Below, piece after piece: positions 4,401 to 61,446 of a stretch of DNA of 64,000 nucleotides (its first letter is position 1; each line of letters starts with the position of its first letter). Location: positions 162,113 through 226,112 of the forward strand of contig CAIVJR010000005.1 in NCBI GenBank assembly GCA_903906305.1. Reading direction: 5' to 3'. Under the pieces are notes generated by a model that had not been told where the DNA came from, did no database searches, and worked only from the letters and a program-made list of their open reading frames with translations. The DNA comes from an uncultured bacterium. GTDB taxonomy: Bacteria > Patescibacteriota > Dojkabacteria > SC72. A program made the translations under genes and the position numbers.

Positions 4401-4537
4401 ACAAAAATCTAGGTATAAATTCCTGTTGCCTGACAACCTTACTTGCGTAAGATATCAGGACTTAAGTTCTAAAGAGCTAATGAACGTGTACAATGTACAC
4501 ACTCAAAACTGAATAGAAATATGTAATTTCAAAAAAA

Positions 4538-7664
<3,127 letters not shown>

Positions 7665-7824
7665 TATTGAAATTACTTTCCTATTCAGTTTTAAATGTGC
7701 AACTACAAATTCTGTAAATATTTATTACAAAATGGACCTACCTATACAGTAATAAATATGTACTACAAAATCTGGTTCATTTTTCAAGAATTAAAGCTTT
7801 AGACTTCGTTTCCTGTTATCTATA

Positions 7825-7911: not shown

Positions 7912-7988
7912 TGGTGGGCGCACCAAGGATCGAACTTGGGACCTCAGTCTTATCAGGACTGTGCTCTAACCAGCTGAGCTATACGCCC
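7912..7988 (-). tRNA. tRNA-Ile (anticodon GAU), CCA encoded
   Basis: Reverse complement GGGCGTATAGCTCAGCTGGTTAGAGCACAGTCCTGATAAGACTGAGGTCCCAAGTTCGATCCTTGGTGCGCCCACCA; anticodon loop CTGATAA. Confidence 0.9.
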
Positions 7989-9917: not shown

Positions 9918-11765
9918 CTATTTCTTACCTTTTTGTACTATGTATAGATGTTTAAGTTCTTCAATAGTAGTAGCCTCTTCAGAAGTCTTGTCCCTACTCC
10001 ATTCTACAAGCCTTGGGAACCTCAAAGAAAGCCCACCACCTATATTTAAATCTGCCTTAATATTCTGTGTAATTTCATCAGCTTCTACAGAAAAAACAAT
10101 CTTAGGATCGACCCATACATCCGGAGCAAGAATATCATTCACTTCTACATTCTTTGGCTTCTTGTTTACAATATCTTCTTTAAAGCCTTCCCCTATACTT
10201 CTAAGCAATTCATCACTAAAACCAGTACCAACTTTACAGATAGCCTCATATATATCAGATTCAGGATTATAGAGCGCACCCAATATAGCGCCAACTCCAA
10301 GCTTACTTCGCTTCCCAGACCCATTGTAGAAGCCTACAGCCACCAAATCTATAGTATCAACTAGATCTTTTTGCATAGATTTCTTTAATTTAATCCATTC
10401 GAAGTTTCTAGCACCAGGATAGTATGGTCCTGCCAACTGTTTTACGATTATTCCTTCTAGCTTTCTCCCCACATTTTCATCGAATACTGCCTTTAGGTCC
10501 TCAATATTACTAATTACAGTAGTATTGCACACCTCTATACCCCCGTGGGTATTAGAAAACTCTTTCTCCAACTGAAATACTCGCTCAGAAGTATCAATTT
10601 CAGACATATCTTTTCCATTCAAATACAGAAGATCAAAGGTCTGAGCTTTAACTGGGATATCAGCTTGCATTCCCTCTACCCCATACTTTCTTCTTCTTTG
10701 CATAGTCTCTTGGTAGCTTAGGAAGGTATTCTCTTTGTAATTCCATCCTAATACTTCAGAGTCCAACACAAATGATTCCTGCTTAAATTCCATCGCAGCA
10801 TCAACAATTTCTGGGAACATATCAGTAACATCCTCTAAATTACGAGTGAATAGCTTTACCCTATATTCCTTGGCTTTAGATTCGAAAAGCCCGCCCTGTG
10901 AGGCCTCCTCCGTGAAGTTTTCCCACATCATTCTCTCTTCATACCTTGAATCATCTTTCTTGAATTTGTGAATCTGACATCTCAATCCATCAAACTTTGG
11001 TTGAACTAAGAATTCGTTTCCGAATCTCTCAATCACTTCTTCAAATGACCCCACTCTCTCTACTAATCTAGACAATACAGGTACTCCTGGTGTTATATGT
11101 AGATCTAAAATTTTCTCATCAGCTCCATCTCTAACCTTCATGATTAGCGAACATATATATCCGAGGTCTGCGCTTACACCATATGATCTATCCAATCTTT
11201 CTCTTAGGCTTTTGTCACCATTTAATACAAATGAGAATGCATCTAATACCGTCTTAGAATTTAGCCCTAGTCTCAGTTCTCCGCATATGGTTCTACTAAG
11301 ATATTTAGCTTCTAGTGGGTTCATGCTCTGAAGAAGACTCATTACTAATGCTTTCTTCTTTTCAATTGATCCTGTTCCTGTTGCCTTAACTATTTCCCAC
11401 ATTCGGTTATATATCCCTTCTAAAGATATTTCCTCTGACTTAAAACCTAATTCATTTGAAAGAAATTCTGCAGCATCTCCAATATCTCCCAGCTCTGTTC
11501 GCTTCTTTTGCATATCAAACTTGCGTCCTTTTAGCTTACACAGTGCGTCAAAAAGCGAGGTTAAACTCTTTTCAGAGAAATTGAATTCACTTACTACAAA
11601 GAACGGAGCTAGTCTTCCCTGTACAAGATATGCAGTTATTTGTGCATCCTTACTGTCCAATGTTTTAAGGAAGTCCGCAAGGATACCTGTCATATCATTC
11701 CTCGAATCAGTTACCTCTAATTGTTGAAAAACCTCGCATACTTTTTTGAATGTTACTCTTTCCAT
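9918..11765 (-). CDS. ATP-dependent DNA ligase, three-domain Lig1/archaeal type (DBD-NTase-OB)
   Basis: 615 aa. Adenylation motif I KFDGLR (…VQPKFDGLRCQIHK), with an N-terminal DNA-binding domain and a C-terminal OB fold. Its start is one nt after the stop of the upstream HTH gene. Confidence 0.85.
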   Translation of the reverse strand: MERVTFKKVCEVFQQLEVTDSRNDMTGILADFLKTLDSKDAQITAYLVQGRLAPFFVVSEFNFSEKSLTSLFDALCKLKGRKFDMQKKRTELGDIGDAAEFLSNELGFKSEEISLEGIYNRMWEIVKATGTGSIEKKKALVMSLLQSMNPLEAKYLSRTICGELRLGLNSKTVLDAFSFVLNGDKSLRERLDRSYGVSADLGYICSLIMKVRDGADEKILDLHITPGVPVLSRLVERVGSFEEVIERFGNEFLVQPKFDGLRCQIHKFKKDDSRYEERMMWENFTEEASQGGLFESKAKEYRVKLFTRNLEDVTDMFPEIVDAAMEFKQESFVLDSEVLGWNYKENTFLSYQETMQRRRKYGVEGMQADIPVKAQTFDLLYLNGKDMSEIDTSERVFQLEKEFSNTHGGIEVCNTTVISNIEDLKAVFDENVGRKLEGIIVKQLAGPYYPGARNFEWIKLKKSMQKDLVDTIDLVAVGFYNGSGKRSKLGVGAILGALYNPESDIYEAICKVGTGFSDELLRSIGEGFKEDIVNKKPKNVEVNDILAPDVWVDPKIVFSVEADEITQNIKADLNIGGGLSLRFPRLVEWSRDKTSEEATTIEELKHLYIVQKGKK

Positions 11766-12237: not shown

Positions 12238-14916
12238 CTATTTCAATTCGGACAAATCATTTCCTACACTATCGTGAACTTCTAAGGTGGTTTCTAATGA
12301 TGCTGCGTTTCTCAAAATATAGCAAGCCTTTTCTCTAAACTCCTCTGCTCTCTTTTCTTTAACCTCGAAGACAAACTCATCATGGATCTGAAGTAATATG
12401 TATGCCTCTCCTTCGAATTCCTTTTCAATGAGCTCATTGAGTTTTACCATTCCTAGTTTCATAATATCAGCCTCCGTACCTTGGATTGGCATATTTACAG
12501 CCTCTCTTAATGCTGCTCTCCTTGCAGTTATGTTCTTCGATTTAACGGCGGCTATTCGCCTTGTTGTTCCAAGCATGCTTTGTACAAATCCTCTCTTGTA
12601 GGCTTCTTTTTCCAGTATTCTAATGTAATTCTCAACACCAACATAGTGCTCGAAGTAGTTCCTAATGTATTCAGATGCTTTTTGAGCATCAATATTTAGT
12701 AATCTTGCTAGACCAAATGATGTCTGTCCGAAAAGTATTGCGAAGTTTACTGTTTTTCCAGCATTTCTCTCTGCTTTGGTTACATCTTCTATCTCCTTCT
12801 CCAAGATTCTAGCTGCTGTGGCTTTGTGAATATCTAATCCATCTGTAAAGTCTTTAATTAACAGATCGTCCCTCGACATATCTGCCATGATTCTTAATTC
12901 CATCTGTGCATAGTCCATTCCTACAAATTTGAATCCATCGTTTGGTACAAAGGCTTTTCTTAACTTCTCTGACCATGTGCCTGACGCTGGGAGATTTTGC
13001 ATGTTTGGATTTACAGATGAGAATCTACCAGAGGTTGTGCCTGCTTGTTTAAAGTCTGTATGTATCGATGTGTTGGAATCCTTTTGAGCCATTTCAAGTA
13101 ATGGTGCAGTGTATGTGCCATATACCTTTGAGACCTCTCGGTATTCCAAAAGTTTTTCTACGCATGGGTGTGCTCCCACTAATCCAGAGAGAACATCTTC
13201 TCTTGTTGATTGTTTTCCTACCACGGGTAGTTGCAACTCATTGAAAAGCACATCTCCCAATTGCTTTGGCGAATTGAGATTGAATTCATGCCCAACAGAA
13301 TCATATATTTCCTTGGCTAACCTCTCCATCGTCCCCTTAACTTCTGTATCCAGTGCTTTGAGGTATCCTGCATCTATTTTAATACCTCTTCTCTCCATCT
13401 TTCCAAGTATCTCTGCTACTGGCATTTCAACCTTCTTAAGGACATTAATCAAGTAATCTCCCTCAACCTTTAGATATTCTTTTATGCTCTTCTGGGTGTA
13501 TTCATACAATTCTGTATCATTTGCCTTCTTTGTTTCCTTCTCCCTTATCTCCACAATTGCATCCAAGATATCCGTCATCCTAAGTGGGGAGAGTTTTTCT
13601 TCAAATATCTTCCCAGCATAGTCGAAGGCAAGATCTTTAAATGTTAATGTCTTCTTCCCAGAGCTAATTGTATGGGCAAAAAGCATTACATCAAAAGATT
13701 TATCGTAATTCAAAACTATGTGTTTCTGCGCTGTTAGTTCCTCCCAATTGTAGAATGTGGTTATGCAATCTTGTGGAATTTGTGTATCAATCTCCTTAAA
13801 AAGGCTATCCTGAAATCCACCACCTACAAAATTAAATCGGACAACGTAGAATGGTTCCCCATTGTAGGATTCCTCTTTGGATATATATCCTAATATCATC
13901 TCCTTAGATCTTCCTGTAAGTTCTTTGAATGTCTCAAGATTTTGCCAATCAATTTCAGTATTTGAATTAGTTCCAAATATGCTTAATTGAGGAGAGTCTG
14001 ACGACTCTTCTTTTCCGAAAAGATCATCTAGTTTTGTCATTAATGATCTAAAACTAAATTTTTTAAACATTTCCAATACATTGCGCCTATCAAAATCCTT
14101 TGTCCTACAATCTTCAAGATGAATATCTACATGCATATTCTGCTCTATGGTTGCTAGCATTCTGCTCATCTCTGCCTGTTCTATACCTTCGCCAAAGAGT
14201 ACTTGTAATCGAGGTTTGAGTGTAGATATATTTTTGTAGATTGTATCCAAGTCTCCATGCTCTTTTAGTAGATCTACCGCGGTTTTTCCACCAATTCCCT
14301 TTATTCCAGGAATGTTGTCAGATGCATCCCCTACTATGGCTTTGTAATCTATGATTTGATTGGGATATACCCCAATGTATTTGAATACCTCATCGGTATC
14401 GTACAGTACTAGGTTTTTGAAATTTCCTGCGGGTAAACACACTCGAATATCGTTCTTTACTAACTGTAACAGATCTCTGTCCCCACTTAATATGTAAAAA
14501 TCCAGATTCTCGTTCTTCCATTTCCCGCTATCTACCATTTTTGATATCGTTCCTAGAATATCATCTGCCTCAAATCCTTCCTGCTTTATGATTGGTATAT
14601 TGAATGCTTTAAGGACTTCCTCTACTAATGGGAATTGATCTAAAAGAGACTGATCCGTCGGTTTTCTGGTGCCTTTGTATTCCGCAAATTCAATATGTCT
14701 AAACGTTGGCGCTTTAGTATCAAATGCACAAAGTACATATTCTGGATGGAATTGTTTTAATGCTTCAAGAAGCATTACCGTGAAGCCATATACCGCGTTT
14801 ACTTGGACACCATCTTCTGTTTGTAAGCTAGATGGATATGCATGGAATGCCCTATGTACGATTGCATTAGCATCTATGGCTAAGAAGACATCCTTGGATG
14901 TTCTTTGTATATTCAT
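12238..14916 (-). CDS. polA: DNA polymerase I (5'-3' exonuclease domain, linker/inactive 3'-5' exo region, and polymerase domain)
   Basis: 892 aa. N-terminal FEN/5'-nuclease motifs, and C-terminal family A polymerase motifs (…RRAAKTVNFAILFGQTSFGLA…, …LLQIHDEFVFE…). Confidence 0.9.
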   Translation of the reverse strand: MNIQRTSKDVFLAIDANAIVHRAFHAYPSSLQTEDGVQVNAVYGFTVMLLEALKQFHPEYVLCAFDTKAPTFRHIEFAEYKGTRKPTDQSLLDQFPLVEEVLKAFNIPIIKQEGFEADDILGTISKMVDSGKWKNENLDFYILSGDRDLLQLVKNDIRVCLPAGNFKNLVLYDTDEVFKYIGVYPNQIIDYKAIVGDASDNIPGIKGIGGKTAVDLLKEHGDLDTIYKNISTLKPRLQVLFGEGIEQAEMSRMLATIEQNMHVDIHLEDCRTKDFDRRNVLEMFKKFSFRSLMTKLDDLFGKEESSDSPQLSIFGTNSNTEIDWQNLETFKELTGRSKEMILGYISKEESYNGEPFYVVRFNFVGGGFQDSLFKEIDTQIPQDCITTFYNWEELTAQKHIVLNYDKSFDVMLFAHTISSGKKTLTFKDLAFDYAGKIFEEKLSPLRMTDILDAIVEIREKETKKANDTELYEYTQKSIKEYLKVEGDYLINVLKKVEMPVAEILGKMERRGIKIDAGYLKALDTEVKGTMERLAKEIYDSVGHEFNLNSPKQLGDVLFNELQLPVVGKQSTREDVLSGLVGAHPCVEKLLEYREVSKVYGTYTAPLLEMAQKDSNTSIHTDFKQAGTTSGRFSSVNPNMQNLPASGTWSEKLRKAFVPNDGFKFVGMDYAQMELRIMADMSRDDLLIKDFTDGLDIHKATAARILEKEIEDVTKAERNAGKTVNFAILFGQTSFGLARLLNIDAQKASEYIRNYFEHYVGVENYIRILEKEAYKRGFVQSMLGTTRRIAAVKSKNITARRAALREAVNMPIQGTEADIMKLGMVKLNELIEKEFEGEAYILLQIHDEFVFEVKEKRAEEFREKACYILRNAASLETTLEVHDSVGNDLSELK

Positions 14917-14928
14917 ATATTGATTTTA

Positions 14929-16794
14929 CTACTTAACAAAAAGTGCTTCAAACTCCTCACCTGTAATTACTTCTTTCTCAATCAAGAAGGCTGCGAGTTT
15001 CTCGACATACTCCTTCTTGTCCTTTAAAAGCTTCTTCGAGTATTCATATGCCTCATCTGTTAATCGCTTAATCTCTTCATCTATGATTTGTGCTGTCTTT
15101 TCACTGTAGTCTTTACCACCACCGTATGAGTATCCAAGATTCTTAGTTTCTTCTCTATCACCATATTTAATTAATCCCAATTTCTCACTCATACCAAGTT
15201 CCATAACCATACTCTTGGCAGTTTCTGTTATCTGTTCAATGTCACCTGAAGCTCCCGAAGAAATATCTCCTAAGAAGACTTCTTCAGCTGCTCTACCTCC
15301 AACACCTGTTCTCAACCATGAAAGCATCTGCTTTTTGTGCATGAATGTTCTTTCTTTTTCTGGAAGATATACCGTTACTCCACCTGTCATTCCTCTTGAG
15401 ATTATGGATACCTGCTCTACTGGATCTGATCCTTCTGTAAACTTTGCAACAATTGCGTGTCCAGCTTCATGATATGCAGTTCGTTTAATATCCTCCACAT
15501 CTTGTTCCTTCCCCTTTTTCTTTCTTCCGAGCTTTACCTTTAAGTAGGATTCCATTAAATCGTCATGACTAATTTTCTTCCTGTCTTCTTTTGCTGCCAT
15601 GATTGCTGCTTCGTTTAGAAGATTCTCTAAATCTGCTCCAGAGTATCCTACTGTTTTCTTAGCTAGCATCTCTAAGTCAGATATATCATCAAACTTTTTG
15701 TTCTTAGCATGTACATCAAGAATTGCTTTCCTACCCTTCATATCTGGCATCTGCACTACAACCATTCTGTCGAATCTTCCTGGTCTCAAGATTGCAGGAT
15801 CTAATACATCTGGTCTATTTGTAGCTGCAAGTACAATGACATTTTCTCTTCCTTCTAATCCATCCATTTCTACCAATATTTGGTTCAATGTTTGCTCTCC
15901 TGCTCCAGAGTGTAGTACTGTTCCTCTCTTCTTAGCTACTGCATCTATTTCATCTATGAAGATGATACATGGTGCTACATTCTTAGCTTTTTTGAAAAGG
16001 TCTCTTACTCTTGATGCTCCAGCCCCTACCAACATTTCTTCAAATTCTGATCCTGATGTGTGGAAGAATGGGACTCCTGCTTCTCCTGCTACAGCTTTTG
16101 CTAACAAGGTTTTTCCTGTACCTGGTGCGCCTGCAAGTAATACTCCCTTAGGAATTCTTGCTCCTGCTGCTAGATATTTTTTAGGGTTCTTAAGGAAATC
16201 TACAATTTCAGTTAATTCTTCTTTTACTTCCTCAATTCCTGCTACATCATCAAATGTTGTACCTGTTTTCTTTCCAAAGAGTAACTTTGCTTTACTCTCT
16301 CCAAAGTCCATGATCTTTCCACCTGATGCCTGCATATTCTTAATCATTATGAATACCAATATTCCTCCTACTACTAGGAATACAATACTGATGATATCAC
16401 TGAAGGATACTCCTACTGCTGGTTGGTAGAAATCATTTTCTAAATCTTTAATATTTACTCCTGAATCTGAGAGTATCTGGTAGAAGTCGGTTCCATTTGG
16501 TAGTAATGCATATTTCTTTACAATGAGGTTGTTAGAATCTCTTTCCTGAAGTGTTACTGTATCGTCTTTCAAGATCATATTTTCATATTTCTTCTCCGTT
16601 ATATCCGTCACTATTTCACTTACTGATACCTCTGTTCCTTTGGATCCTAATCCTCTAATCCAGAAGAATCCTGCGGCTAATGCTGCAGTTAATACTAACG
16701 ATACTACTATACTTGGTATATTTATCTTCCTTCCTGTAGGCATTTTTCTAATATCTATCTTCACTTCTTTTTTCTTAGGTTCTTTGTTATCCAT
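14929..16794 (-). CDS. ftsH: ATP-dependent zinc metalloprotease FtsH
   Basis: N-terminal TM helices, an AAA module (GAPGTGKT, DEIDA, SRH) and zinc motif HEAGHAIV. Confidence 0.9.
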   Translation of the reverse strand: MDNKEPKKKEVKIDIRKMPTGRKINIPSIVVSLVLTAALAAGFFWIRGLGSKGTEVSVSEIVTDITEKKYENMILKDDTVTLQERDSNNLIVKKYALLPNGTDFYQILSDSGVNIKDLENDFYQPAVGVSFSDIISIVFLVVGGILVFIMIKNMQASGGKIMDFGESKAKLLFGKKTGTTFDDVAGIEEVKEELTEIVDFLKNPKKYLAAGARIPKGVLLAGAPGTGKTLLAKAVAGEAGVPFFHTSGSEFEEMLVGAGASRVRDLFKKAKNVAPCIIFIDEIDAVAKKRGTVLHSGAGEQTLNQILVEMDGLEGRENVIVLAATNRPDVLDPAILRPGRFDRMVVVQMPDMKGRKAILDVHAKNKKFDDISDLEMLAKKTVGYSGADLENLLNEAAIMAAKEDRKKISHDDLMESYLKVKLGRKKKGKEQDVEDIKRTAYHEAGHAIVAKFTEGSDPVEQVSIISRGMTGGVTVYLPEKERTFMHKKQMLSWLRTGVGGRAAEEVFLGDISSGASGDIEQITETAKSMVMELGMSEKLGLIKYGDREETKNLGYSYGGGKDYSEKTAQIIDEEIKRLTDEAYEYSKKLLKDKKEYVEKLAAFLIEKEVITGEEFEALFVK

Positions 16795-16982
16795 TTTGAT
16801 GTAATAATCTAAATTAGATTGGGAATGTTTTAGATATGTATGTATATCTGGTGATTTGATTCCTAATATATATGATTATATCAAAAGGGATGAGTATTCT
16901 AAAGGAAATATTGGGGATGTTTATGCTAAGTCCTACAGGTATCCAAATTACAATTACGGATACCCGTAGGGTTAGCTCGTTC

Positions 16983-17261
16983 TTATTCTTTCATTTGGCG
17001 GATGATTTCTTTCTGGTAAGATTCTTGATGGTGATCAACCCACAAACCGACAGCAGTATTTTCATCCAAGAGGAAGAATACATTGTTTCGGGGGAATTTA
17101 GACTCCCTGCTGACAGATATCATTTCGGTAGTCCAATTGGTCACTTTGCACAGTAAAACTGGATCATTCGCAACATCACTTAAATCACGCCATGGAGAAT
17201 CGGGATTTAGGATCCATGCCTTTGCTTGCACAGATTCACTTCCCAACAGGGAAATTGCCAA
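16983..17261 (-). CDS. Hypothetical protein (92 aa) in a ~600-bp region of short overlapping ORFs upstream of ftsH
   Basis: ORF only, with no recognisable motif. Could be a gene remnant. Confidence 0.15.
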   Translation of the reverse strand: MAISLLGSESVQAKAWILNPDSPWRDLSDVANDPVLLCKVTNWTTEMISVSRESKFPRNNVFFLLDENTAVGLWVDHHQESYQKEIIRQMKE

Positions 17262-17416
17262 TAATCGTCAAGGCTTTTTGGGCCATGGCACTTGCGATAT
17301 CTTCAAAACACATTCGAACCCCTTTCCTTTTTGAAAGAATATTAAGAGCTATGAATAATGGCAAGACGCCAATATCTTAGCGAATATTATACTATAAGTC
17401 TATTGGAAAATAAATA

Positions 17417-17490
17417 TGGTGGAAGGTGGAATCGAACCACCGACCTTAGGTTTATGAATCCTATGCTCTAACCTTCTGAGCTATTCCACC
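17417..17490 (-). tRNA. tRNA-Met (anticodon CAU), elongator type
   Basis: Reverse complement GGTGGAATAGCTCAGAAGGTTAGAGCATAGGATTCATAAACCTAAGGTCGGTGGTTCGATTCCACCTTCCACCA; anticodon loop TTCATAA. Confidence 0.8.
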
Positions 17491-19348: not shown

Positions 19349-19423
19349 TGGTTGCGGGGGTTGGACTCGAACCAACGACTTTCAGGTTATGAGCCTGACG
19401 AGCTGCCACTGCTCTACCCCGCG
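19349..19423 (-). tRNA. tRNA-Met (CAU), probable initiator tRNA-fMet (C1:A72 mismatch), CCA encoded
   Basis: Reverse complement CGCGGGGTAGAGCAGTGGCAGCTCGTCAGGCTCATAACCTGAAAGTCGTTGGTTCGAGTCCAACCCCGCAACCA. Unpaired 1:72 (C/A) is the bacterial initiator hallmark. Confidence 0.8.
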
Positions 19424-20066: not shown

Positions 20067-20954
20067 GTGGGAGCAATCAATAATCCAAATTTTGAGGAAA
20101 AAAGAAATAAGTTTATAGGTGATTTAAGATCTAAAGGTAGGTCTGAAGCAACTGTTATAGCCTATGCTAAGGATATTGAACAACTTTTGAACTTTTTCTC
20201 TAAAGAAGGATGCACTACCATTGAAGCAACAAGCATTGAGGACTTAGAAAAGTACAAACAGTCTCTACAGGACAACAACTATACACCAAAGAGTATTTCA
20301 AGAAAGATAAATAGTACTAGAACATTCTATAGATATCTTATAGACAACTCTATAATCTCTGATAATCCTTCTGAGAAATTAGCTCATCCAAAGTTTGAGA
20401 CCAAACCTCCAAGAGTTTTAACAGAGATGGAATATAGAGCATTGAGAGATGTTAGTAGAATTGATATTAGACTCTACTCTATCGTTGAAGTATTACTTCA
20501 AACTGGTATTAGAATTGGTGAATTAGCAGCACTTTCATTAGAAGATATTAGAAAATCTAAGGATGGTAAGATTGATTACCTCTACATTAAAGCAGCTGGT
20601 AGTCATCCATTCCGAAAGGTTCCTTTAAACAAATCCGCTAAGAAAGCTATTGATGAATATTTAGATGTTAGACCTGAGACTGAGGATGATACATTATTTG
20701 TTACTAAGAATGGGAGACCTTTGTTAGTAAGAAATATTAGAACAGCTATAGATAAGGCTTTTGAAAGAGGTGGTATTAAGAATGCTAAGGTTAATGACTT
20801 AAGAAATACCTTTATTGCTCACCACCTTTCTAATGGTGTTAGCTTAGTAGTTGTTTCTAAATTGGTTGGTCACAAGAGACTTTCTACTACTGAGAAGTAT
20901 CTTAATCTTGTTAAGATGCAAAAAGAAGAGCAAAAGAATCTTAAGGAGTTATAA
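20067..20954 (+). CDS. Tyrosine site-specific recombinase, XerC/XerD-like
   Basis: N-terminal SAM-like domain. C-terminal catalytic residues R (…TGIRIGELAAL…), HxxR (…AHHLSNG…GHKRLSTT) and Y (EKYLNL). Confidence 0.8.
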   Translation: MGAINNPNFEEKRNKFIGDLRSKGRSEATVIAYAKDIEQLLNFFSKEGCTTIEATSIEDLEKYKQSLQDNNYTPKSISRKINSTRTFYRYLIDNSIISDNPSEKLAHPKFETKPPRVLTEMEYRALRDVSRIDIRLYSIVEVLLQTGIRIGELAALSLEDIRKSKDGKIDYLYIKAAGSHPFRKVPLNKSAKKAIDEYLDVRPETEDDTLFVTKNGRPLLVRNIRTAIDKAFERGGIKNAKVNDLRNTFIAHHLSNGVSLVVVSKLVGHKRLSTTEKYLNLVKMQKEEQKNLKEL

Positions 20955-21084
20955 TTCATAATTCTTTCCTTGACCCAATTATTTCGCAGAGATATAATAA
21001 GTAATCCCCAGGGGGAAAGGTCTTTGAGGGTTAGTCCTCACAGCAATACCCCCACTTATATTTTCAATTTCCTTCTCTGATTAC

Positions 21085-22038
21085 CTATTTTAGGGTATTG
21101 TTCAACACTCTATACCAGTTCTTGTACAAGAATTTCTCTACAGACTCTCTTGGATACCTAGTTAAAAGGAACTTTTCCAAACCAGACATTATTGAAATAT
21201 CTGTATAACCTTCTAGAAAAGGATATTCTGGTAATGGATAAATATCGGAGGTAAACGATACATAATCATCCCCCCACTTATCAACAACATAATCTAGGTG
21301 TTTTACAAGATCTTCAAAGCTTCCATTTGGTCCTGTATCTTCTGCTAATGGGAATAATGATATTAATCCTCCCCTATCAACAACTATCTGAATTTCCTCA
21401 TCAAGCATCTCATGTTTACAATTCCAAACTGAACGGACGTTACTGTGTGTATTAACAATCATTCCATTGAAGTATTTATCTGCATCTTTAACAGAATTTT
21501 CACTTAGATGGGCTAAATCTATTATTACAGGAGATTTACTCATTTCGCGAAGAAGTTCTTTTCCTAAATCACTCAGGCCGCTATCAATCTTACTTTGTCT
21601 AGAACATGCATATTTATTTGTAAAATCCCAAGTCAATCCGTAACTTATAACTCCCTTTTTGTAGAATTCGTAAAAATCATCTATGCTATCAATACACTCC
21701 AACCCTTCTATACTAAAAAAATATCCTGTCTTATCTATTGGCTTTTCAATCAAGCTCTTCTTGTCTTTAATTTGATACAGTTTATCTGTCTTACTAATAA
21801 TATTTTCATAAAAAGCATAGAAATCATTTACACCATCCTTGTATGTGGTTTTAAGGAAACTTTCGTCAAAATAAAGACTGAATCCTGCAATATCTATTTC
21901 GGAATCTTGTAATTTTTTTAATGTCACAGGAGGTTTTGTATTATCGCTAAGAAAATCTTCAACAGAATAATTCCATAGCTTGTACATATCAGCGATATCT
22001 ATATGAGAATCTATTTTCTTCATAACAAAATATATCAT
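21085..22038 (-). CDS. Membrane dipeptidase (peptidase family M19 / renal dipeptidase-like)
   Basis: N-terminal IDSHIDIA (metal-binding H-x-D). …LTWDFTNKYA…, …VIIDLAHLSE…, and C-terminal …VEKFLYKNWYRVL match M19 motifs. Confidence 0.65.
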   Translation of the reverse strand: MIYFVMKKIDSHIDIADMYKLWNYSVEDFLSDNTKPPVTLKKLQDSEIDIAGFSLYFDESFLKTTYKDGVNDFYAFYENIISKTDKLYQIKDKKSLIEKPIDKTGYFFSIEGLECIDSIDDFYEFYKKGVISYGLTWDFTNKYACSRQSKIDSGLSDLGKELLREMSKSPVIIDLAHLSENSVKDADKYFNGMIVNTHSNVRSVWNCKHEMLDEEIQIVVDRGGLISLFPLAEDTGPNGSFEDLVKHLDYVVDKWGDDYVSFTSDIYPLPEYPFLEGYTDISIMSGLEKFLLTRYPRESVEKFLYKNWYRVLNNTLK

Positions 22039-22077
22039 AAATGTTACTTAGCCGGAACCATTTGAGGAATGAAAATA

Positions 22078-22150
22078 TGGGAGTAGATGGAATCGGACCA
22101 TCGACCACGGCTTTATAAGAACCGCGCTCTACCAACTGAGCTATACTCCC
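22078..22150 (-). tRNA. tRNA-Ile with anticodon UAU (reads AUA); CCA not encoded; T-loop TCCGATT (C at position 55)
   Basis: Reverse complement GGGAGTATAGCTCAGTTGGTAGAGCGCGGTTCTTATAAAGCCGTGGTCGATGGTCCGATTCCATCTACTCCCA. Clean cloverleaf with anticodon loop CTTATAA. Confidence 0.7.
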
Positions 22151-22202
22151 ATGTAAAGTAGCCTATTCTATCAAAATAAGGATGATTTTAGAAGATGTAC
22201 CC

Positions 22203-24731
22203 TTAGAATCCCATTGGTGGGAAAGGAGAATTCACAGGATTAGGCTCAGGTTTCCTATCCAATTGTGACCTAATCTTAATATCCTCATTAATCACAGCCA
22301 CATCCCTACCATACTTAGCTCTAGAATACTTCTTAATGATATCTGCAACCTCCTTATGTTCTGGTAAATTGAAACCACTCTCCGGATACTTTGATCCATA
22401 TGAAGAATCCAAAGAAAAAGGAGCTGGATATATACCATCATTAAGAAGCTTAGTATACCAATGGCTAGATCCCTGATTCACCATATCTCCAGCTTTAATA
22501 TATGGTTCAAATTGTGTTTCGAGGAATTTCGCATCCTCAGCACTACATCTAGCAATGAATAGTGAACCCACATTTCCAAATACTGCATTCCTAATATCCT
22601 CTGGTAATTGCCCAATATATTGGTGTGCAATGGTTAAATCCAATCGATATTTTCTAGCTTCAGACAATATTGAAGAAAACTCTTCTGTAGCAAAGTTTTG
22701 GAACTCATCAGCATAGAAGAAGAAATCTTTCCTCTGACCCTCTGGGATATTCTCCCTACTCAGTGCAGCTGCTAACATCTTTTGAACTAAGAGTAAGCCA
22801 ATGAAGGACATATTATCCTCACCTATGGAACCCTTGGAAAGATTAATAATCAATATCTTCTGGTTATCCATAATATCTCTAAAATCAAAGGAAGACTTAG
22901 ATTGACCAATAATATTCCTTACTGCTAAGTTAGTTGTAAATTTATCAAACTTCGAAATGAAGTATGTTAAAGATTCAGACTTTGTTTTCTTATCCGTCTT
23001 AGCAACCTGATCAGTCCAATATCTTCTTACTAATTCATCCTTAACCTGAGGTAACCAATAGCTCATTACCCATTCCTCATCTTGCAACATTCTAACAACC
23101 TCTATCAATGTAGAACCTTCCTTGGACATAGCCGTAAGCATAGAGTTTCTGACAGCCTGTTGCATAGCTGGGCCTACATAACCCTGATTATGTGGGTCAA
23201 AGAGTCTTATGAGCAACGCAATGAAGCTATTAACGATCTGATGCTTATGCTGCTCATTGTAGAATTCCATTATATTAAGACCAAATGGTCTTTCAAAATC
23301 ACCTGCATTAAAATAGATGACATCTTCAGCTCTTTCAGGAGGAATTAGTTCTAAAATATCTTCAGCAGCTTGTCCGTGAGGATCAATGAAACAAACACCA
23401 TCCCCATTATATATATCCTGCAAAATCATTCGTTTCATCAACCAAGATTTACCAGTACCAGTTTGTCCTAGGATATATGAGTGGCGTCTCCTATCATCAC
23501 GTTTAAAACAGATTGTTTTTTTCTTCCCTCTAAAGATGTTATTCCCTATCCATATCGTATCCTTAGATTTGATATCTGAGCTAATGGAGTTATCCGCTAT
23601 GAATTCTCTTGAGAGTAGCCAGTGAATGTTAGGTGTTGATACATTTTTATTTGGGAAATGATACAAAGCAGCGAGCTCTTCAACATTAAATACTGATTCT
23701 GGATATTCCGGCGTTCTTCTATATACTACGTCATATATGAATTTCTTTTCGTCTTTCTTCTCTACTTTTACCTTCTTAAGCTTGTTAATCCCTGGATTAC
23801 TGTATTGATCAAAGGCGCCAATGATATTGTCCAAATGCATTTTAGCTATTGCCTGATCAGGAGCACTGGTGATAATTCTAATCTCTCCCATTAAACCTGG
23901 TTTTGCAACCTTCTTCCCTATGCCCTGAAGTTTTTCTTGAGATATACTAATTTTCTTCTTCTCCGGATCTGAATTATTGCTTTCAATCTTTTGAACAAAC
24001 TTAGATCCATTTTTTTGCCACTTAGAATCTGTAGGGGTGACTATCAATTGTACAATCACGCCTTCATTATCAGAGATCTTACTTAAAGTACTAAGTACAT
24101 TTGCTAAAGGATCCCCTGTAAAGTTTTCTGCAACTCTTAGTGGTGCATACGAGTCATCATCGAGTATCAATCTTGCATACGCAGACTCAGTATGTGGAGC
24201 AAATATGTTGTATTCATTTACAGTTGTAACATCAGCGTCTTGGTATGATCCTAGGATTTGTTTTTCAACGAGATCTGCTAATTTCTTTGGACAATGCACA
24301 AAGAATCGTATTTCTCCTGGTAATCCAACCATTTCAAAACTTACAGCATTTCCAACAGTAAAATGTTCTGCTAAGCCATCCCCTTTTCCTCCAATACCAC
24401 ATATATTTGCAAACATTTGTTCTGCAACCCCTATTTCCACCTCATTGTCTCTTGGTAATCTTACTTCCATCAATACTCCATCATTGGCTTTTTCGTTCCT
24501 ATCTTTGTGTACTAATTTTTTTTTAACAATGAAATATGCCCCTACGCAGGCACCTATTACAACAAGAAAAAGGCTTATCCATCCCCATGGGATATCTATG
24601 GTTTTACCACCATAGAGGTCAGTGTATGTATCTTTGGGATATGTAACATTCGATCCAGTCTCAACCTTGGTATTACTTTTACTTGGTGTAGGCCCTATTA
24701 CTTGTGAGTATGTGAATTCATCAGAATTCAT
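22203..24731 (-). CDS. Membrane-anchored P-loop ATPase of the T4SS coupling-protein / VirB4-TraC-like (FtsK-HerA superfamily, AAA_10/TraG-D_C-like) type
   Basis: 842 aa. TM at about aa 52-70. Walker A ILGQTGTGKSWL followed by FIDPHGQ. Walker B FFFYADEFQNF. Downstream TIAHQYIGQL resembles the conserved Q-x-x-QL of T4CPs (VirD4/TrwB/TraD). Confidence 0.55.
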   Translation of the reverse strand: MNSDEFTYSQVIGPTPSKSNTKVETGSNVTYPKDTYTDLYGGKTIDIPWGWISLFLVVIGACVGAYFIVKKKLVHKDRNEKANDGVLMEVRLPRDNEVEIGVAEQMFANICGIGGKGDGLAEHFTVGNAVSFEMVGLPGEIRFFVHCPKKLADLVEKQILGSYQDADVTTVNEYNIFAPHTESAYARLILDDDSYAPLRVAENFTGDPLANVLSTLSKISDNEGVIVQLIVTPTDSKWQKNGSKFVQKIESNNSDPEKKKISISQEKLQGIGKKVAKPGLMGEIRIITSAPDQAIAKMHLDNIIGAFDQYSNPGINKLKKVKVEKKDEKKFIYDVVYRRTPEYPESVFNVEELAALYHFPNKNVSTPNIHWLLSREFIADNSISSDIKSKDTIWIGNNIFRGKKKTICFKRDDRRRHSYILGQTGTGKSWLMKRMILQDIYNGDGVCFIDPHGQAAEDILELIPPERAEDVIYFNAGDFERPFGLNIMEFYNEQHKHQIVNSFIALLIRLFDPHNQGYVGPAMQQAVRNSMLTAMSKEGSTLIEVVRMLQDEEWVMSYWLPQVKDELVRRYWTDQVAKTDKKTKSESLTYFISKFDKFTTNLAVRNIIGQSKSSFDFRDIMDNQKILIINLSKGSIGEDNMSFIGLLLVQKMLAAALSRENIPEGQRKDFFFYADEFQNFATEEFSSILSEARKYRLDLTIAHQYIGQLPEDIRNAVFGNVGSLFIARCSAEDAKFLETQFEPYIKAGDMVNQGSSHWYTKLLNDGIYPAPFSLDSSYGSKYPESGFNLPEHKEVADIIKKYSRAKYGRDVAVINEDIKIRSQLDRKPEPNPVNSPFPPMGF

Positions 24732-25133: not shown

Positions 25134-25577
25134 TTATATCACATACTTTCTATTTTCAATATGTAATTCCCTATCCAAATCTCTTTCCTTGTCCCTGTCA
25201 CGTTTTTCATGGTATTTCCTACCCTTAGCCAACCCTACCTCTACCTTAATCATACCTCTAACAGTATACAGGCTAACAGGTATTAAAGTTAAATTCCCTT
25301 GTTTCATCTTACTTTCTAATTTATTCAATTGATCTCTATTTATCAATAGCTTTTTTGATCTGGCAGAATCATAGTTCTTGTCAGTTGCAAACTGGTATTT
25401 AGGGATATCCGCATTAACAAGCCATAGCTCGTTATTTATAACCTTAACATACGCGTCACCAATGTTAGCTCTCCCAGATTTAATAGATTTTACTTCAGCA
25501 CCAGTTAAAACTACTCCAGCTTCAAATGATTCAAGAATTTCATAGTTAAAAGATGCTTTTTTGTTAACAATTTTCAT
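25134..25577 (-). CDS. smpB: SsrA-binding protein SmpB
   Basis: …FNYEILESFEAGVVLTGAEVKSIKSGRANIGDAYVKV…LLINRDQLNKL… and a basic C-terminal tail. Confidence 0.9.
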   Translation of the reverse strand: MKIVNKKASFNYEILESFEAGVVLTGAEVKSIKSGRANIGDAYVKVINNELWLVNADIPKYQFATDKNYDSARSKKLLINRDQLNKLESKMKQGNLTLIPVSLYTVRGMIKVEVGLAKGRKYHEKRDRDKERDLDRELHIENRKYVI

Positions 25578-39925: not shown

Positions 39926-40339
39926 TGGTGGAGACGGTGGAAATTGAATCCACGTCCAAAAGTTTTGCTTAGCATCATGTACAAACATATCTAATCCTGT
40001 ATAGCTAGACATATCTAAAAAGATTAGCAAAAAGATATATCTACTCAGTAATTAAATTCGTACATACTACTCTACTGACAAAATAGTAATAATATATCCT
40101 AGTAACGACTATCTTTTACCCCTAACTAAGAATAAGGATAAAGACACTAGTCAAACTTAATTGGCTAGACTTTAAGCAGCAAAGTTAAAGTTGAAATTTG
40201 GCATAGCCAAACTTGCTTTAATATTCTCTGCAAAAGCGACGATTTTGTTTTTTACACTTATCATTGTGCGTTGATTAACGAGACAACCCTCGGTTTGTGA
40301 CAACTAAACGCAGACTCCTGTCGAAAGCCTTACGTCCCC
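39926..40339 (-). ncRNA. ssrA: Transfer-messenger RNA (tmRNA, SsrA)
   Basis: The 5' GGGGACGTAAGGCTTTCGACAGGAGTC pairs with the 3' GGACGTGGATTCAATTTCCACCGTCTCCACCA. This gives a tRNA-Ala-like acceptor with G3:U70, a T-arm, and encoded CCA. The internal tag ORF ends …CCAAATTTCAACTTTAACTTTGCTGCTTAA (…PNFNFNFAA*). Confidence 0.8.
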
Positions 40340-40400: not shown

Positions 40401-41132
40401 TTATTTTCCTCTCCTTGCCTCCCACAACCCAATCGCAGTAGCTACAGAAAGATTAAGAGAATCCACCTTGTCCGAATTAGGTATGTATATGCTCTGTCCT
40501 AATTCTCCAAATTCTTTAGGTAGTCCCTTACTTTCATTCCCTTGAATCATACTAAATGGCTCCTCAAACTTAACCTCTCGAATATCCTTAGCACCATCAA
40601 GCATGAAGGTATATATATTCCTTTTGCTGTACTTAGTCATATATTCCTGAATACTATCAAAATATTCAAAATCTATTTGGAATATTGCCCCCATTGTAGA
40701 ACGCACAACCATAGGGTCAAAAATATCAGTAGCAGGACGAATTATGGCCAAATTAGTAACATCAAACCCAAGCATAGTTCTGATTATTGTTCCTAGATTC
40801 CCCATATTCCTTGGCTCTACCAATACCAAATGATTCTCTTTTGGATCTAGTACAGAATCATATTTTTTGAAAATACCTAACACATATGTATTCTCCTTAG
40901 TCGCAATCTTGTCTATAGCCCTGTCGGCGACTTCTACTGGAATTCTCAACTCTTCACACAAATCTAGAACATCATTTACACCTTCACTTTCATCATGCTT
41001 GGATTTAACCAACACCTTTATGAGGTTCTCTTTCTGATGATTAATCAAATCTATGGTTGGATATGTACCAAAGGAATATGAATAGTCATACTTCTTTTGA
41101 TATCTTTTTAATCTTGGATCTAGTATTCCCAT
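40401..41132 (-). CDS. SpoU/TrmH-family RNA 2'-O-methyltransferase
   Basis: …LVLVEPRNMGNLGTIIRTM…, …MIQGNESKGLP…, …YIPNSDKVDSLNLSVATAIGLWE match SPOUT motifs. Confidence 0.8.
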   Translation of the reverse strand: MGILDPRLKRYQKKYDYSYSFGTYPTIDLINHQKENLIKVLVKSKHDESEGVNDVLDLCEELRIPVEVADRAIDKIATKENTYVLGIFKKYDSVLDPKENHLVLVEPRNMGNLGTIIRTMLGFDVTNLAIIRPATDIFDPMVVRSTMGAIFQIDFEYFDSIQEYMTKYSKRNIYTFMLDGAKDIREVKFEEPFSMIQGNESKGLPKEFGELGQSIYIPNSDKVDSLNLSVATAIGLWEARRGK

Positions 41133-59181: not shown

Positions 59182-61446
59182 ATGGAAAGAAATATACCAA
59201 AAGTATTTGAATCTACAACATCGGAACCAGAAATATACAAACTCTGGGAATCCTCTGGCTACTCTACTCCTGAAAAAGTAGAAGAATATTTGAGAGAGAA
59301 CGGATTGAATGTTGAAAAACCATTCACGATTACTCTTCCTCCTCCAAATGCCAATGGTAATTTACACTTGGGTCATATGTGTGGGTATTCATTCCATGAT
59401 GCATTTGCAAGATTCAATAGAATGACAGGTCACCCTACTCTCCTAGTGCCTGGAAAAGATCATGCTGGTATCCAAACAGAGAGTGCCTTTACAAAAGTGT
59501 TACAAAATAATGGCGAGGATAAATGGGAAATGGGAAGAGATGAATTTTACAAACGATGCTATGACTTCTGTATGCAGAATGCTGATAATGCTAGAACCCA
59601 GGAAAAGAACATAGGGCTTTCGGCAGATTACAGTAGAGAATTCTTCACTCTAGATCCTAAGTTAACCAAGATCATCTACGAAACATTTTACAAGATGTAT
59701 GAGGATGGAATGGTTTACAGAGATAAACGTATTGTAAATGTATGTCCTAGTTGTAAAACAGCTTTAGCAGATATTGATACGGACCATGAAGAGCGAAGAG
59801 GTATCTTTGCATATATCATCTACCCTCTCATTGATGAAGCAGATAAACAATTAGCTAAAGAGAGGTTTGGTGTAGAAGGCATTACAGTTGCTACAACTAG
59901 ACCTGAAACTATGTTAGGAGATACGGCTGTTGCAGTTAATCCAAATGATCCTAGATACAAAGAATTCATAGGTAAGAAGGTTTTACTTCCAATTGCAAAC
60001 CGAGAGATTCCAATCATTGCTGAAGAAGAAGTAGATCTTGAAACAGGAACGGGTGCTTTGAAAGTTACTCCTGCTCACTCCCCTGTCGACTTTGAGATTG
60101 GTAAACGACAAGGCTTAGAAATCATCAATGTAATTGATGAGGAAGGTAAAATGACTGGAAATATTCCTGACAGATTCAAAGGTATGGGGACAACGGATTG
60201 TTCAAGAGCGTTGTGTGGTGAATTAACTGAATTAGGATTGTTAGTAAGGATTGAAAATATTAAGCATGAGGTAGCAGTATGTGAGAGATGCGGTACCCCT
60301 ATAGAGCCTGTCATATCTAATCAATGGTATGCAAATGTCGAACCATTGGCGAAGAAAGCATTAGAAGCACTGCATAATGGTGATGTTAAGGTCATACCTG
60401 AGGGTCAGCAAAAAGCTTTAGAATTCTTCTATGAAAATATTCAACCGTGGTGTATTTCTAGACAACTTTGGTGGGGTCAGAGAATTCCTGTTTGGTATTC
60501 TGGGAGTAAGAAGCTACATGATTGGTTGAATGAAAATCAAGGTAAAACGGTTGGAGATTTTGAAAAGGAATTTAATGTAAAAGCTAATGGTACTGGTGAG
60601 ATTAAGTTGGGCGAGGATAGCCCAGAGGGTATATGGGAACAAGAGTCGGATATGTTTGATACTTGGTTTAGTTCTGGTCAGGTTCCTTTCTCCACCCTTG
60701 GTGGTCCTGAGGGTGATGATTACAAGAAGTACTATCCTACTCAGATGATGATTCATGCTAGGGATATTCTTTTCTGGTGGACTGCACGTATGATTATGTT
60801 TGGTCTCTACAGAACTGGTGAGGTTCCCTACTCTACGGTATTACTTACGGGTATGATTCTTGCTGCTGATGGTTCTAAGATGTCTAAATCTAAGGGTAAT
60901 GGTATTGAACCTAATGATGTATTCCAAAAGTATGGTGCCGATGCTTTAAGACTTTGGTATTACTCTGATGCGTTACCTGGTTCTAATGCTCCTCTTAGAG
61001 AAGAGAAGATTAAGGGTAACAGAAACTTTGTTAACAAGATTTGGAATGCTAGTAGGTTCATATTGATGAATATTGAGGATGAGGAAATAGAGAAGATACA
61101 GGGGAAGGAAGTGGCTGATACTGACAGAGTTAAGGCTACTAAAGAGCATATTGAAAAGGTTGGTAAATATCTGGAGAAGTATCAATTAAATCTTGGTGCT
61201 GAAACTATTCGGGAATTCTTTTGGCATGAGTTGTGTGACAAATGGATTGAGGAGATTAAAACAGAGATTAAGGATCAACCTGTTGGTAGTGATTTAAGAA
61301 TTGAAAAACTTTCTGAATTGTTATGGTTGTTAAAAAAGAATTTAAAGATTATGCATCCTTTTGTTCCTTTTGTTACTGAGGCTGTATGGCAAGAGTTAGT
61401 AAAATTGGGATTAGCGGAGGGAGTATTAATGGTTGAACAGATTTAA
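59182..61446 (+). CDS. valS: Valine--tRNA ligase (short form)
   Basis: Class I aaRS. PPPNANGNLHLGH (ValRS-type HIGH region), an editing-domain region, and KMSKSKGN. Confidence 0.75.
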   Translation: MERNIPKVFESTTSEPEIYKLWESSGYSTPEKVEEYLRENGLNVEKPFTITLPPPNANGNLHLGHMCGYSFHDAFARFNRMTGHPTLLVPGKDHAGIQTESAFTKVLQNNGEDKWEMGRDEFYKRCYDFCMQNADNARTQEKNIGLSADYSREFFTLDPKLTKIIYETFYKMYEDGMVYRDKRIVNVCPSCKTALADIDTDHEERRGIFAYIIYPLIDEADKQLAKERFGVEGITVATTRPETMLGDTAVAVNPNDPRYKEFIGKKVLLPIANREIPIIAEEEVDLETGTGALKVTPAHSPVDFEIGKRQGLEIINVIDEEGKMTGNIPDRFKGMGTTDCSRALCGELTELGLLVRIENIKHEVAVCERCGTPIEPVISNQWYANVEPLAKKALEALHNGDVKVIPEGQQKALEFFYENIQPWCISRQLWWGQRIPVWYSGSKKLHDWLNENQGKTVGDFEKEFNVKANGTGEIKLGEDSPEGIWEQESDMFDTWFSSGQVPFSTLGGPEGDDYKKYYPTQMMIHARDILFWWTARMIMFGLYRTGEVPYSTVLLTGMILAADGSKMSKSKGNGIEPNDVFQKYGADALRLWYYSDALPGSNAPLREEKIKGNRNFVNKIWNASRFILMNIEDEEIEKIQGKEVADTDRVKATKEHIEKVGKYLEKYQLNLGAETIREFFWHELCDKWIEEIKTEIKDQPVGSDLRIEKLSELLWLLKKNLKIMHPFVPFVTEAVWQELVKLGLAEGVLMVEQI

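Follow-up and report, generated by a model that had tools for sequence, protein, structure and literature searches.

The 64,000-nucleotide stretch analyzed here (the window; contig CAIVJR010000005.1, positions 162,113 to 226,112) comes from an uncultured member of Candidatus Dojkabacteria and encodes, on the minus strand at 22078 to 22150, an isoleucine tRNA whose anticodon is UAU. This gene is very probably a native, vertically inherited minor tRNA-Ile2(UAU) of the lineage, reading AUA codons through a U34-A Watson-Crick pair. The tRNA is well formed and under purifying selection, with an unusually constrained anticodon arm, and it appears to be the principal AUA decoder of the class and probably the sole one. 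As such, the lineage probably works in the manner of Mycoplasma mobile, Bifidobacterium, and Neorickettsia. How to read AUA without also reading AUG is a classic problem of decoding, and lysidine, formed by TilS, has been described as the near-universal bacterial solution.

The identity of the gene was supported by ARAGORN, by Rfam, and by covariation among its orthologues. ARAGORN called a tRNA-Ile(tat) at 22077 to 22151 on the minus strand, one of ten tRNA and transfer-messenger RNA (tmRNA) genes that it reported for the window. The Rfam model RF00005 matched 22078 to 22150 on the same strand over its full length at 68.5 bits (gathering score, 29; E = 8e-13 window-wide), which lies within the range of the window's remaining tRNAs. 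In the minus-strand orientation, the gene reads GGGAGTA TA GCTC AGTTGGTA GAGC G CGGTT CTTATAA AGCCG TGGTC GATGG TCCGATT CCATC TACTCCC A. The anticodon T34-A35-T36 falls at 22117 to 22115, within a loop of 7 nucleotides (nt), C-U-U-A-U-A-A, that has U33 and A37. Thus, the clean cloverleaf with anticodon UAU and loop CUUAUAA described in an initial annotation of this sequence was borne out, and the tRNA predictor named there as a check assigned TAT and no different anticodon. The discriminator base is A73, and the gene does not encode the 3' CCA. Encoding of the CCA varies within the class, as it is present in L127, L128, L134, L143, and other loci of the relatives introduced below. By sequence comparison, the acceptor stem and D arm resemble those of the tRNA-Ile(GAU) of the window (7912 to 7988, minus strand), the decoder of AUU and AUC, which lies in the rRNA operon spacer and was identified by ARAGORN, Rfam, and sequence. 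Together with A73 and the codon evidence, this resemblance lends indirect support to aminoacylation with isoleucine.

Relatives were collected from contigs carrying homologues of the neighboring VirD4-like protein (L121 to L128) and then by an alignment-based scan of one genome per GTDB species, which yielded 80 loci (L129 to L208) in which the VirD4-like protein is 60 to 94% identical to that of the window. Titles naming Dojkabacteria prevail among these 80 loci. Many of the metagenome-assembled genome records in this second set are titled "uncultured Candidatus Saccharibacteria bacterium," and L208 and L206 carry the names "Candidatus Microgenomates" and "uncultured Thermococci archaeon"; these titles are taxonomic mislabels. 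A tRNA-Ile(tat) gene was found by ARAGORN directly downstream of the VirD4-like gene in 73 of the 80 loci, with a median gap of 53 nt. The contig of L164 breaks off within the tRNA gene, beyond the UAU anticodon arm, and provides a 74th copy, while the other six loci end 0 to 5 bp past the anchor gene. The tRNA is therefore present in 74 of 74 informative genomes. The initial annotation had considered a UAU-type tRNA-Ile to be rare and scattered among bacteria. Its rarity agrees with the literature, in which tRNA-Ile(UAU) accompanies tilS loss in nine tilS-lacking species of three clades (Taniguchi 2013, PMC3575796) and such bacteria are still termed "rare cases" (2026 preprint, 10.64898/2026.02.03.703510). 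In Dojkabacteria, however, the gene is no sporadic oddity but is found in every informative genome at a fixed position.

Orthologue comparison also revealed strong constraint on the tRNA itself. Among 33 distinct orthologous sequences, 99.9% of the stem cells (21 pairs) are standard pairs, and six pairs of the acceptor and T stems show compensatory double changes (e.g., G5-C68 to A-U and A50-U64 to G-C). The observed covariation score was reached by none of 500 shuffles, and shifted registers fall to 36 to 50% pairing. The 17-nt anticodon arm CGGTT-CTTATAA-AGCCG, with the pairs C27-G43, G28-C42, G29-C41, and U31-A39 and the wobble U30.G40, is identical in all 74 copies. At the same loci, the arm of the initiator (fMet) tRNA has three variants and that of the second CAU tRNA has four. 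Taken together, the fixed synteny, covariation, and invariant anticodon arm indicate a functional, vertically inherited gene rather than the cargo of a phage or of an integrative conjugative element.

Delivery by such a mobile element might be suspected from the neighborhood, which includes families associated with conjugation (a VirD4-like ATPase and pilins of the type IV secretion system [T4SS] kind) and a tyrosine recombinase, from the small insertions found 3' of the tRNA in some genomes, and from the at least 120 matches in viral contigs to a loose tRNA-Ile(UAU) pattern. The whole block is nevertheless collinear in relatives across the full identity range of the VirD4-like protein, in the order AddA, pilins, SpoIID, SmpB, VirD4-like, tRNA-Ile(UAU), Xer-like, DivIC, tRNA-fMet, efp, tRNA-CAU, ftsH, polA, and ligase. 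It adjoins housekeeping genes, lies about 25 kb from dnaA and dnaN, and has a uniform GC content of about 35%. Moreover, a T4SS is described as a Patescibacteria feature in a preprint (10.1101/2025.01.22.634366). A mobile-element origin is effectively refuted by synteny, and we regard it as very improbable.

Codon usage establishes the demand for such a tRNA. Across 43 genes of the window (15,487 codons), AUA accounts for 30.7 per 1,000 codons (3.1% of all codons) and is the ninth commonest codon, with AUG lower at 21.4 per 1,000. AUA usage, which the initial annotation had put forward as a further test, is accordingly that of a major codon, making up 38.5% of the isoleucine codons. The meaning of AUA was assessed by aligning nine families of genes from the window with their counterparts in the 80 genomes. 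At sites with AUA in the window, the orthologues carry AUA in 27.8% of cases, AUU or AUC in 26.9%, valine codons in 15.9%, leucine codons in 12.0%, and AUG in 3.7%. This profile matches that of AUU sites (AUG, 1.8%) and AUC sites (AUG, 4.4%), and AUG sites remain AUG in 47%. Because AUA exchanges with AUU and AUC and not with AUG, it means isoleucine; being heavily used as well, it requires an efficient reader. The only candidate reader seen in the window and the loci is tRNA-Ile(UAU).

These exchange patterns also bear on the idea that AUA has been recoded, with the UAU tRNA reading both AUA and AUG or carrying an amino acid other than isoleucine. Wobble pairing of an unmodified U34 with G is possible in principle, and the tRNA-Ile(UAU) of M. 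mobile binds AUG on Escherichia coli ribosomes (PMC3575796). Yet AUA sites behave like other isoleucine sites, AUG sites keep their own identity, and the acceptor stem and D arm of the tRNA resemble those of tRNA-Ile(GAU). Reassignment is thus extremely unlikely.

The T-loop of the window copy departs from the canonical form. It reads T54-C55-C56-G57-A58-T59-T60, with C55 at 22096 (g on the plus strand), and the Rfam alignment places C55 opposite the consensus U of GGUUCGA, so that the canonical U54-U55-C56-R57-A58 loop does not occur. The other nine tRNAs of the window have TTCGA or TTCAA loops. In this respect, both the TCCGATT loop with C at position 55 and the normal loop, TTCGATT, in the CAU tRNA at 17417 to 17490 were described correctly in the initial annotation. 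C55 occurs in the window, in three metagenome assemblies from different samples (L121 to L123; neighboring protein 92% identical), and in three GTDB species representatives (L129, L130, and L131; 94%, 92%, and 88%). The next relatives (L132, 87%; L137, 86%; and L194, 85%) and all other orthologues have U55. An assembly error can be excluded for C55, since the identical sequence was recovered from three metagenome assemblies made independently and from three species representatives. It is a real, derived single U-to-C substitution that is fixed in the small subclade of the window and has been inherited over at least three or four species-level lineages.

Nothing else in the sequence sets the C55 group apart: G18-G19 and T54/A58 remain as in the other orthologues, and the variants seen in the D-loop also occur in U55 relatives. 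Secondary-structure prediction gives equal energies for C55 and U55; any effect of C55 would therefore lie in the tertiary structure and in losing the potential pseudouridine-55. With C at this position, no pseudouridine is possible, and the usual contact between G18 and pseudouridine-55 (Psi55) cannot form as such. The substitution is evidently tolerated, as at least three or four species carry it with every stem and the anticodon arm preserved. C55 is a subclade curiosity and not a property of UAU-type tRNAs.

One might instead take C55 as the mark of a tRNA that is losing its function in the organism of the window, that is, of a pseudogene in the making. U55 is close to universal, and C55 was found in just 2 of 120 phage tRNA-Ile(UAU) genes, among the matches listed, and in 4 of 174 tRNAs of the Dojkabacteria loci, all four of them tRNA-Ile(UAU). 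Against decay, the sequences of the window, the three assemblies, and the three representatives are nearly identical apart from C55, while the neighboring protein has diverged to 88%. In addition, no stem pair of the 21 and no part of the anticodon arm has been lost, the Rfam score is 68.5 bits, and AUA still makes up 3.1% of the codons in the same genome. We therefore consider decay highly unlikely.

If tRNA-Ile(UAU) is the sole AUA reader, TilS and its substrate, a tRNA-Ile2(CAU), would be dispensable, and both were searched for. E. coli TilS (NC_000913.3) gave no match in phmmer searches (--max, E < 10) of open reading frames (ORFs) of at least 80 amino acids (aa) from the window and 88 Dojkabacteria loci (1.43 Mb, with the surroundings of ftsH included). 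Family scans of the window ORFs gave no match to TilS or PF01171, and no TilS was seen in the phage or metagenome loci. Three SGGxDS motif matches were rejected as TilS candidates, being secreted or SpoIID-type proteins and not PP-loop ATPases. The genes tilS and hpt directly precede ftsH in many bacteria, as in the Bacillus subtilis operon. In the window, ftsH (14929 to 16794, minus strand; TIGR01241, 689 bits) is preceded by efp, a CAU tRNA, and noncoding DNA only. When TilS, the HPRT of a Dojkabacteria relative (L128), and three ORFs of L124 were used as tblastn queries, no remnant was found at 16795 to 17415 or elsewhere in the window. A stand-alone hpt occurs near the locus in one relative. 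On balance, we lean slightly toward the absence of tilS from the genome.

The CAU tRNAs of the 80 loci fall into two classes only, initiator and Met-like. In the window, the initiator tRNA-fMet(CAU) (19349 to 19423, minus strand; ARAGORN and sequence) has the C1xA72 mismatch and an A29G30G31/C39C40U41 anticodon stem, and it has 54 orthologues in the loci. The second CAU tRNA (17417 to 17490, minus strand) has T3-A70, G4-C69, G5-C68, and an A31.A39 mismatch in addition to its TTCGATT loop. It lacks the Ile2 indicators reported by Silva 2006 (PMC1635315), which are G3, A3, C70, or T70 and, frequently, C4-G69 or C5-G68. By its sequence, it is most likely an elongator tRNA-Met and not an Ile2 species, an assignment made by elimination because T3-A70 is not covered by the published Met and Ile2 rules. 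Its anticodon arm, TGGGA-TTCATAA-ACCCA, keeps the A31.A39 mismatch at the bottom of the stem in 46 of 46 orthologues from L129 to L208, and the pair 28-42 covaries from G-C to A-U. We also considered an ancestral or paralogous C34 copy of tRNA-Ile(UAU). Metagenome searches returned 94 CAU tRNA matches that share its 5' half, none of which has its anticodon stem or lies on a Dojkabacteria-like contig; no candidate for such a copy was therefore found among them.

Several observations weigh against a sole, TilS-independent decoder. The search for tilS and tRNA-Ile2(CAU) covered about 64 kb (about 9%) of a genome of about 0.7 Mb and about 22 kb per relative. Within the window and loci, an E. coli IleRS (isoleucyl-tRNA synthetase) query matched only the ValRS at 59182 to 61446. 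A scan for promoters and terminators found neither a sigma-70 consensus promoter nor an intrinsic terminator flanking tRNA-Ile(UAU); thus, its expression is inferred from conservation alone. C55 could lower the stability or function of the tRNA in the subclade of the window. Finally, Lactobacillus casei BL23 and BD-II, L. plantarum, and Cyanothece PCC 7424, as well as Ferrimonas balearica DSM 9799, have both tilS and tRNA-Ile(TAT) (PMC3575796), so the association with tilS loss is not obligatory.

These dual cases give substance to the principal alternative, in which TilS and a conventional tRNA-Ile2(CAU) are kept at other places in the genome, with the UAU tRNA as an additional AUA reader that raises decoding capacity, as proposed for L. 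casei and L. plantarum. Such redundancy has documented precedent (Taniguchi 2013, PMC3575796), the share of the genome reached by the tilS search is compatible with it, and the high usage of AUA could favour two decoders. The published dual cases are individual species or strains, whereas the Dojkabacteria gene is class-wide with an invariant anticodon arm. Nor do the two CAU tRNA classes of the 80 loci, the ftsH locus devoid of tilS, or the 94 metagenome matches devoid of a matching stem supply the components that a redundant system would need. We consider redundancy a serious possibility, albeit one of less than even probability.

Under the interpretation that tRNA-Ile(UAU) is the main AUA decoder, U34 would pair with the A of AUA, and no lysidine or TilS step would be involved. 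An IleRS that accepts U34 would be expected, either with Arg or Lys at the position of E. coli W905 or of the IleRS2 type, and the avoidance of AUG would depend on the anticodon arm, on the ribosome, and on competing tRNA-Met. The invariant anticodon arm is the likely site of the constraint against AUG reading. The widest form of this proposal, that the whole class Dojkabacteria lacks lysidine and TilS and reads AUA, a top-ten codon, by a U34 tRNA with a frozen anticodon arm, we judge to be evenly poised.

The window represents the chromosomal region around the replication origin in a member of Candidatus Dojkabacteria (WS6; candidate phyla radiation [CPR]/Patescibacteria). It has a GC content of 35%, an rRNA operon, dnaA and dnaN, and, near 48 kb, a switch in GC skew. 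Also encoded are ftsH, polA, efp, smpB (25134 to 25577), tmRNA, ValRS, MetRS, an ATP-dependent DNA ligase, T4SS-type pilins, and the VirD4-like ATPase. The last of these, a VirD4/TraD-like T4SS coupling ATPase by family matches (DUF8128 and DUF87; 22203 to 24731, minus strand), is the upstream neighbor of the tRNA and served as the synteny anchor. It shares 92% identity with a protein from candidate division WS6 bacterium GW2011_GWC1_36_11, and other matches bear the name Candidatus Dojkabacteria. In the window, tRNA-Ile(UAU) begins 51 nt past the stop codon of this gene; in L129 and L131, about 650 nt separate the two.

Downstream, a XerC/XerD-like tyrosine recombinase (20067 to 20954, plus strand; NCBIfam XerC/XerD, 1e-46) is convergent with the tRNA and forms the conserved anchor on that side, being kept as a 295-aa gene in L124 to L128 and in 63 of the genome loci. 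The spacer between the tRNA and the Xer-like gene (20955 to 22076 in the window) is about 73 nt in most species and holds 0.4 to 5 kb of extra DNA in some. In the window, it contains a lineage-specific insertion, an M19 membrane dipeptidase gene (21085 to 22038, minus strand; Pfam PF01244, 1.3e-49). This dipeptidase is also found in the 92%-identity relative L121 and is absent from L125 to L128, in which the Xer-like gene directly follows the tRNA; in L124, the spacer (12653 to 13280) holds an NYN-domain gene. The 3' side of tRNA-Ile(UAU) is thus a small insertion hotspot.

Other features of the window are recorded here for completeness. The tmRNA (39926 to 40339, minus strand) has an ARAGORN-predicted tag peptide, VKNKIVAFAENIKASLAMPNFNFNFAA, that is long and ends in FNFAA, not in the usual LAA-type end. 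The 23S rRNA match (4530 to 7666, minus strand) spans 3,137 nt versus 2,925 nt for the Rfam model, and the extra stretch of about 200 nt is possibly an rRNA insertion of the kind known from CPR bacteria. The DNA ligase is a 615-aa ATP-dependent enzyme of the archaeal/eukaryal type (9918 to 11765, minus strand) that adjoins polA and is conserved in relatives; no NAD-dependent LigA was seen within the window. A SpoU-family 2'-O-methyltransferase (40401 to 41132, minus strand) gave subthreshold matches to RlmB (77.8 bits) and to TrmL, the tRNA position-34 methylase (62.6 bits). MetRS (62000 to 63484, plus strand) has only 494 aa, a truncated class I synthetase architecture. ValRS (59182 to 61446, plus strand) has 754 aa and covers positions 2 to 687 of a model of 860 positions, the C-terminal domain being missing; a Pfam assignment of this protein as LeuRS was rejected in favor of the NCBIfam assignment as ValRS.

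Dojkabacteria offer a natural dataset of dozens of species in which to ask which features of tRNA, IleRS, and ribosome make a U34 tRNA safe. The dispensability of TilS across a deep bacterial branch, and whether antibacterials targeted at TilS would miss such organisms, can be addressed in the same lineage. If TilS has been lost class-wide, Dojkabacteria would greatly exceed in size any other bacterial clade that decodes AUA independently of TilS, lineage-wide coadaptation of IleRS and the decoding center to avoid AUG would be implied, and one subclade would further tolerate a C55 T-loop in this essential tRNA. That subclade is a small natural experiment on the importance of the universally conserved U55/pseudouridine-55. 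Mechanistically, the Dojkabacteria tRNA-Ile(UAU) extends a known solution and is relevant to research on decoding and tRNA modification. AUA decoders of this kind are already known; what differs is the class-level breadth, which we did not find reported in the literature searched. No paper linking lysidine with Patescibacteria or the candidate phyla radiation was found in that literature.

Among known systems, M. mobile (PMC3575796 and PMC1635315) shares with Dojkabacteria a TAT tRNA-Ile as the AUA decoder, a small AT-rich genome, and an expected U34-A pairing without lysidine. It has been demonstrated that M. mobile lacks tilS and tRNA-Ile2(CAU), leaves U34 unmodified, needs the IleRS residue Arg865, and avoids AUG at the ribosome, whereas Dojkabacteria are known here from sequence. 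The two also differ in breadth, as M. mobile and the haemoplasmas comprise a handful of species in a single genus and the Dojkabacteria gene is fixed in no fewer than 74 species sampled from a CPR class. Closer in distribution are Bifidobacterium and Neorickettsia, which lack tilS and have tRNA-Ile(TAT) together with a eukaryote-type IleRS2 (PMC3575796); there, the TAT tRNA occurs in several species of a clade, resembling the clade-wide pattern of Dojkabacteria. Archaeal/eukaryal-type synthetases have also been reported from CPR lineages, including WS6 (TyrRS; Mukai 2017, PMC5370408). In L. casei and L. plantarum, Cyanothece PCC 7424, and F. balearica, by contrast, the TAT tRNA stands beside the lysidine system in single species or strains, while in Dojkabacteria the gene spans the class at a conserved position and its anticodon arm does not vary.

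With respect to the T-loop, the canonical bacterial form (T54-Psi55-C56-R57-A58) and that of the window subclade have T54, C56, G57, A58, the G53-C61 pair, and the D-loop G18-G19 in common and differ at position 55, which is Psi55 in the former and C in the latter. An experimental counterpart of the tRNA as a whole is the suppressor of a tilS deletion in B. subtilis, in which tRNA-Ile1 changed from GAU to UAU (Kohrer 2014, PMC3919564); its unmodified U34 sustains AUA decoding and binds AUG weakly. That suppressor is a one-step derivative of tRNA-Ile1, whereas the Dojkabacteria tRNA differs from the tRNA-Ile(GAU) of the window throughout the anticodon and T stems, which marks it as an old, separate gene.

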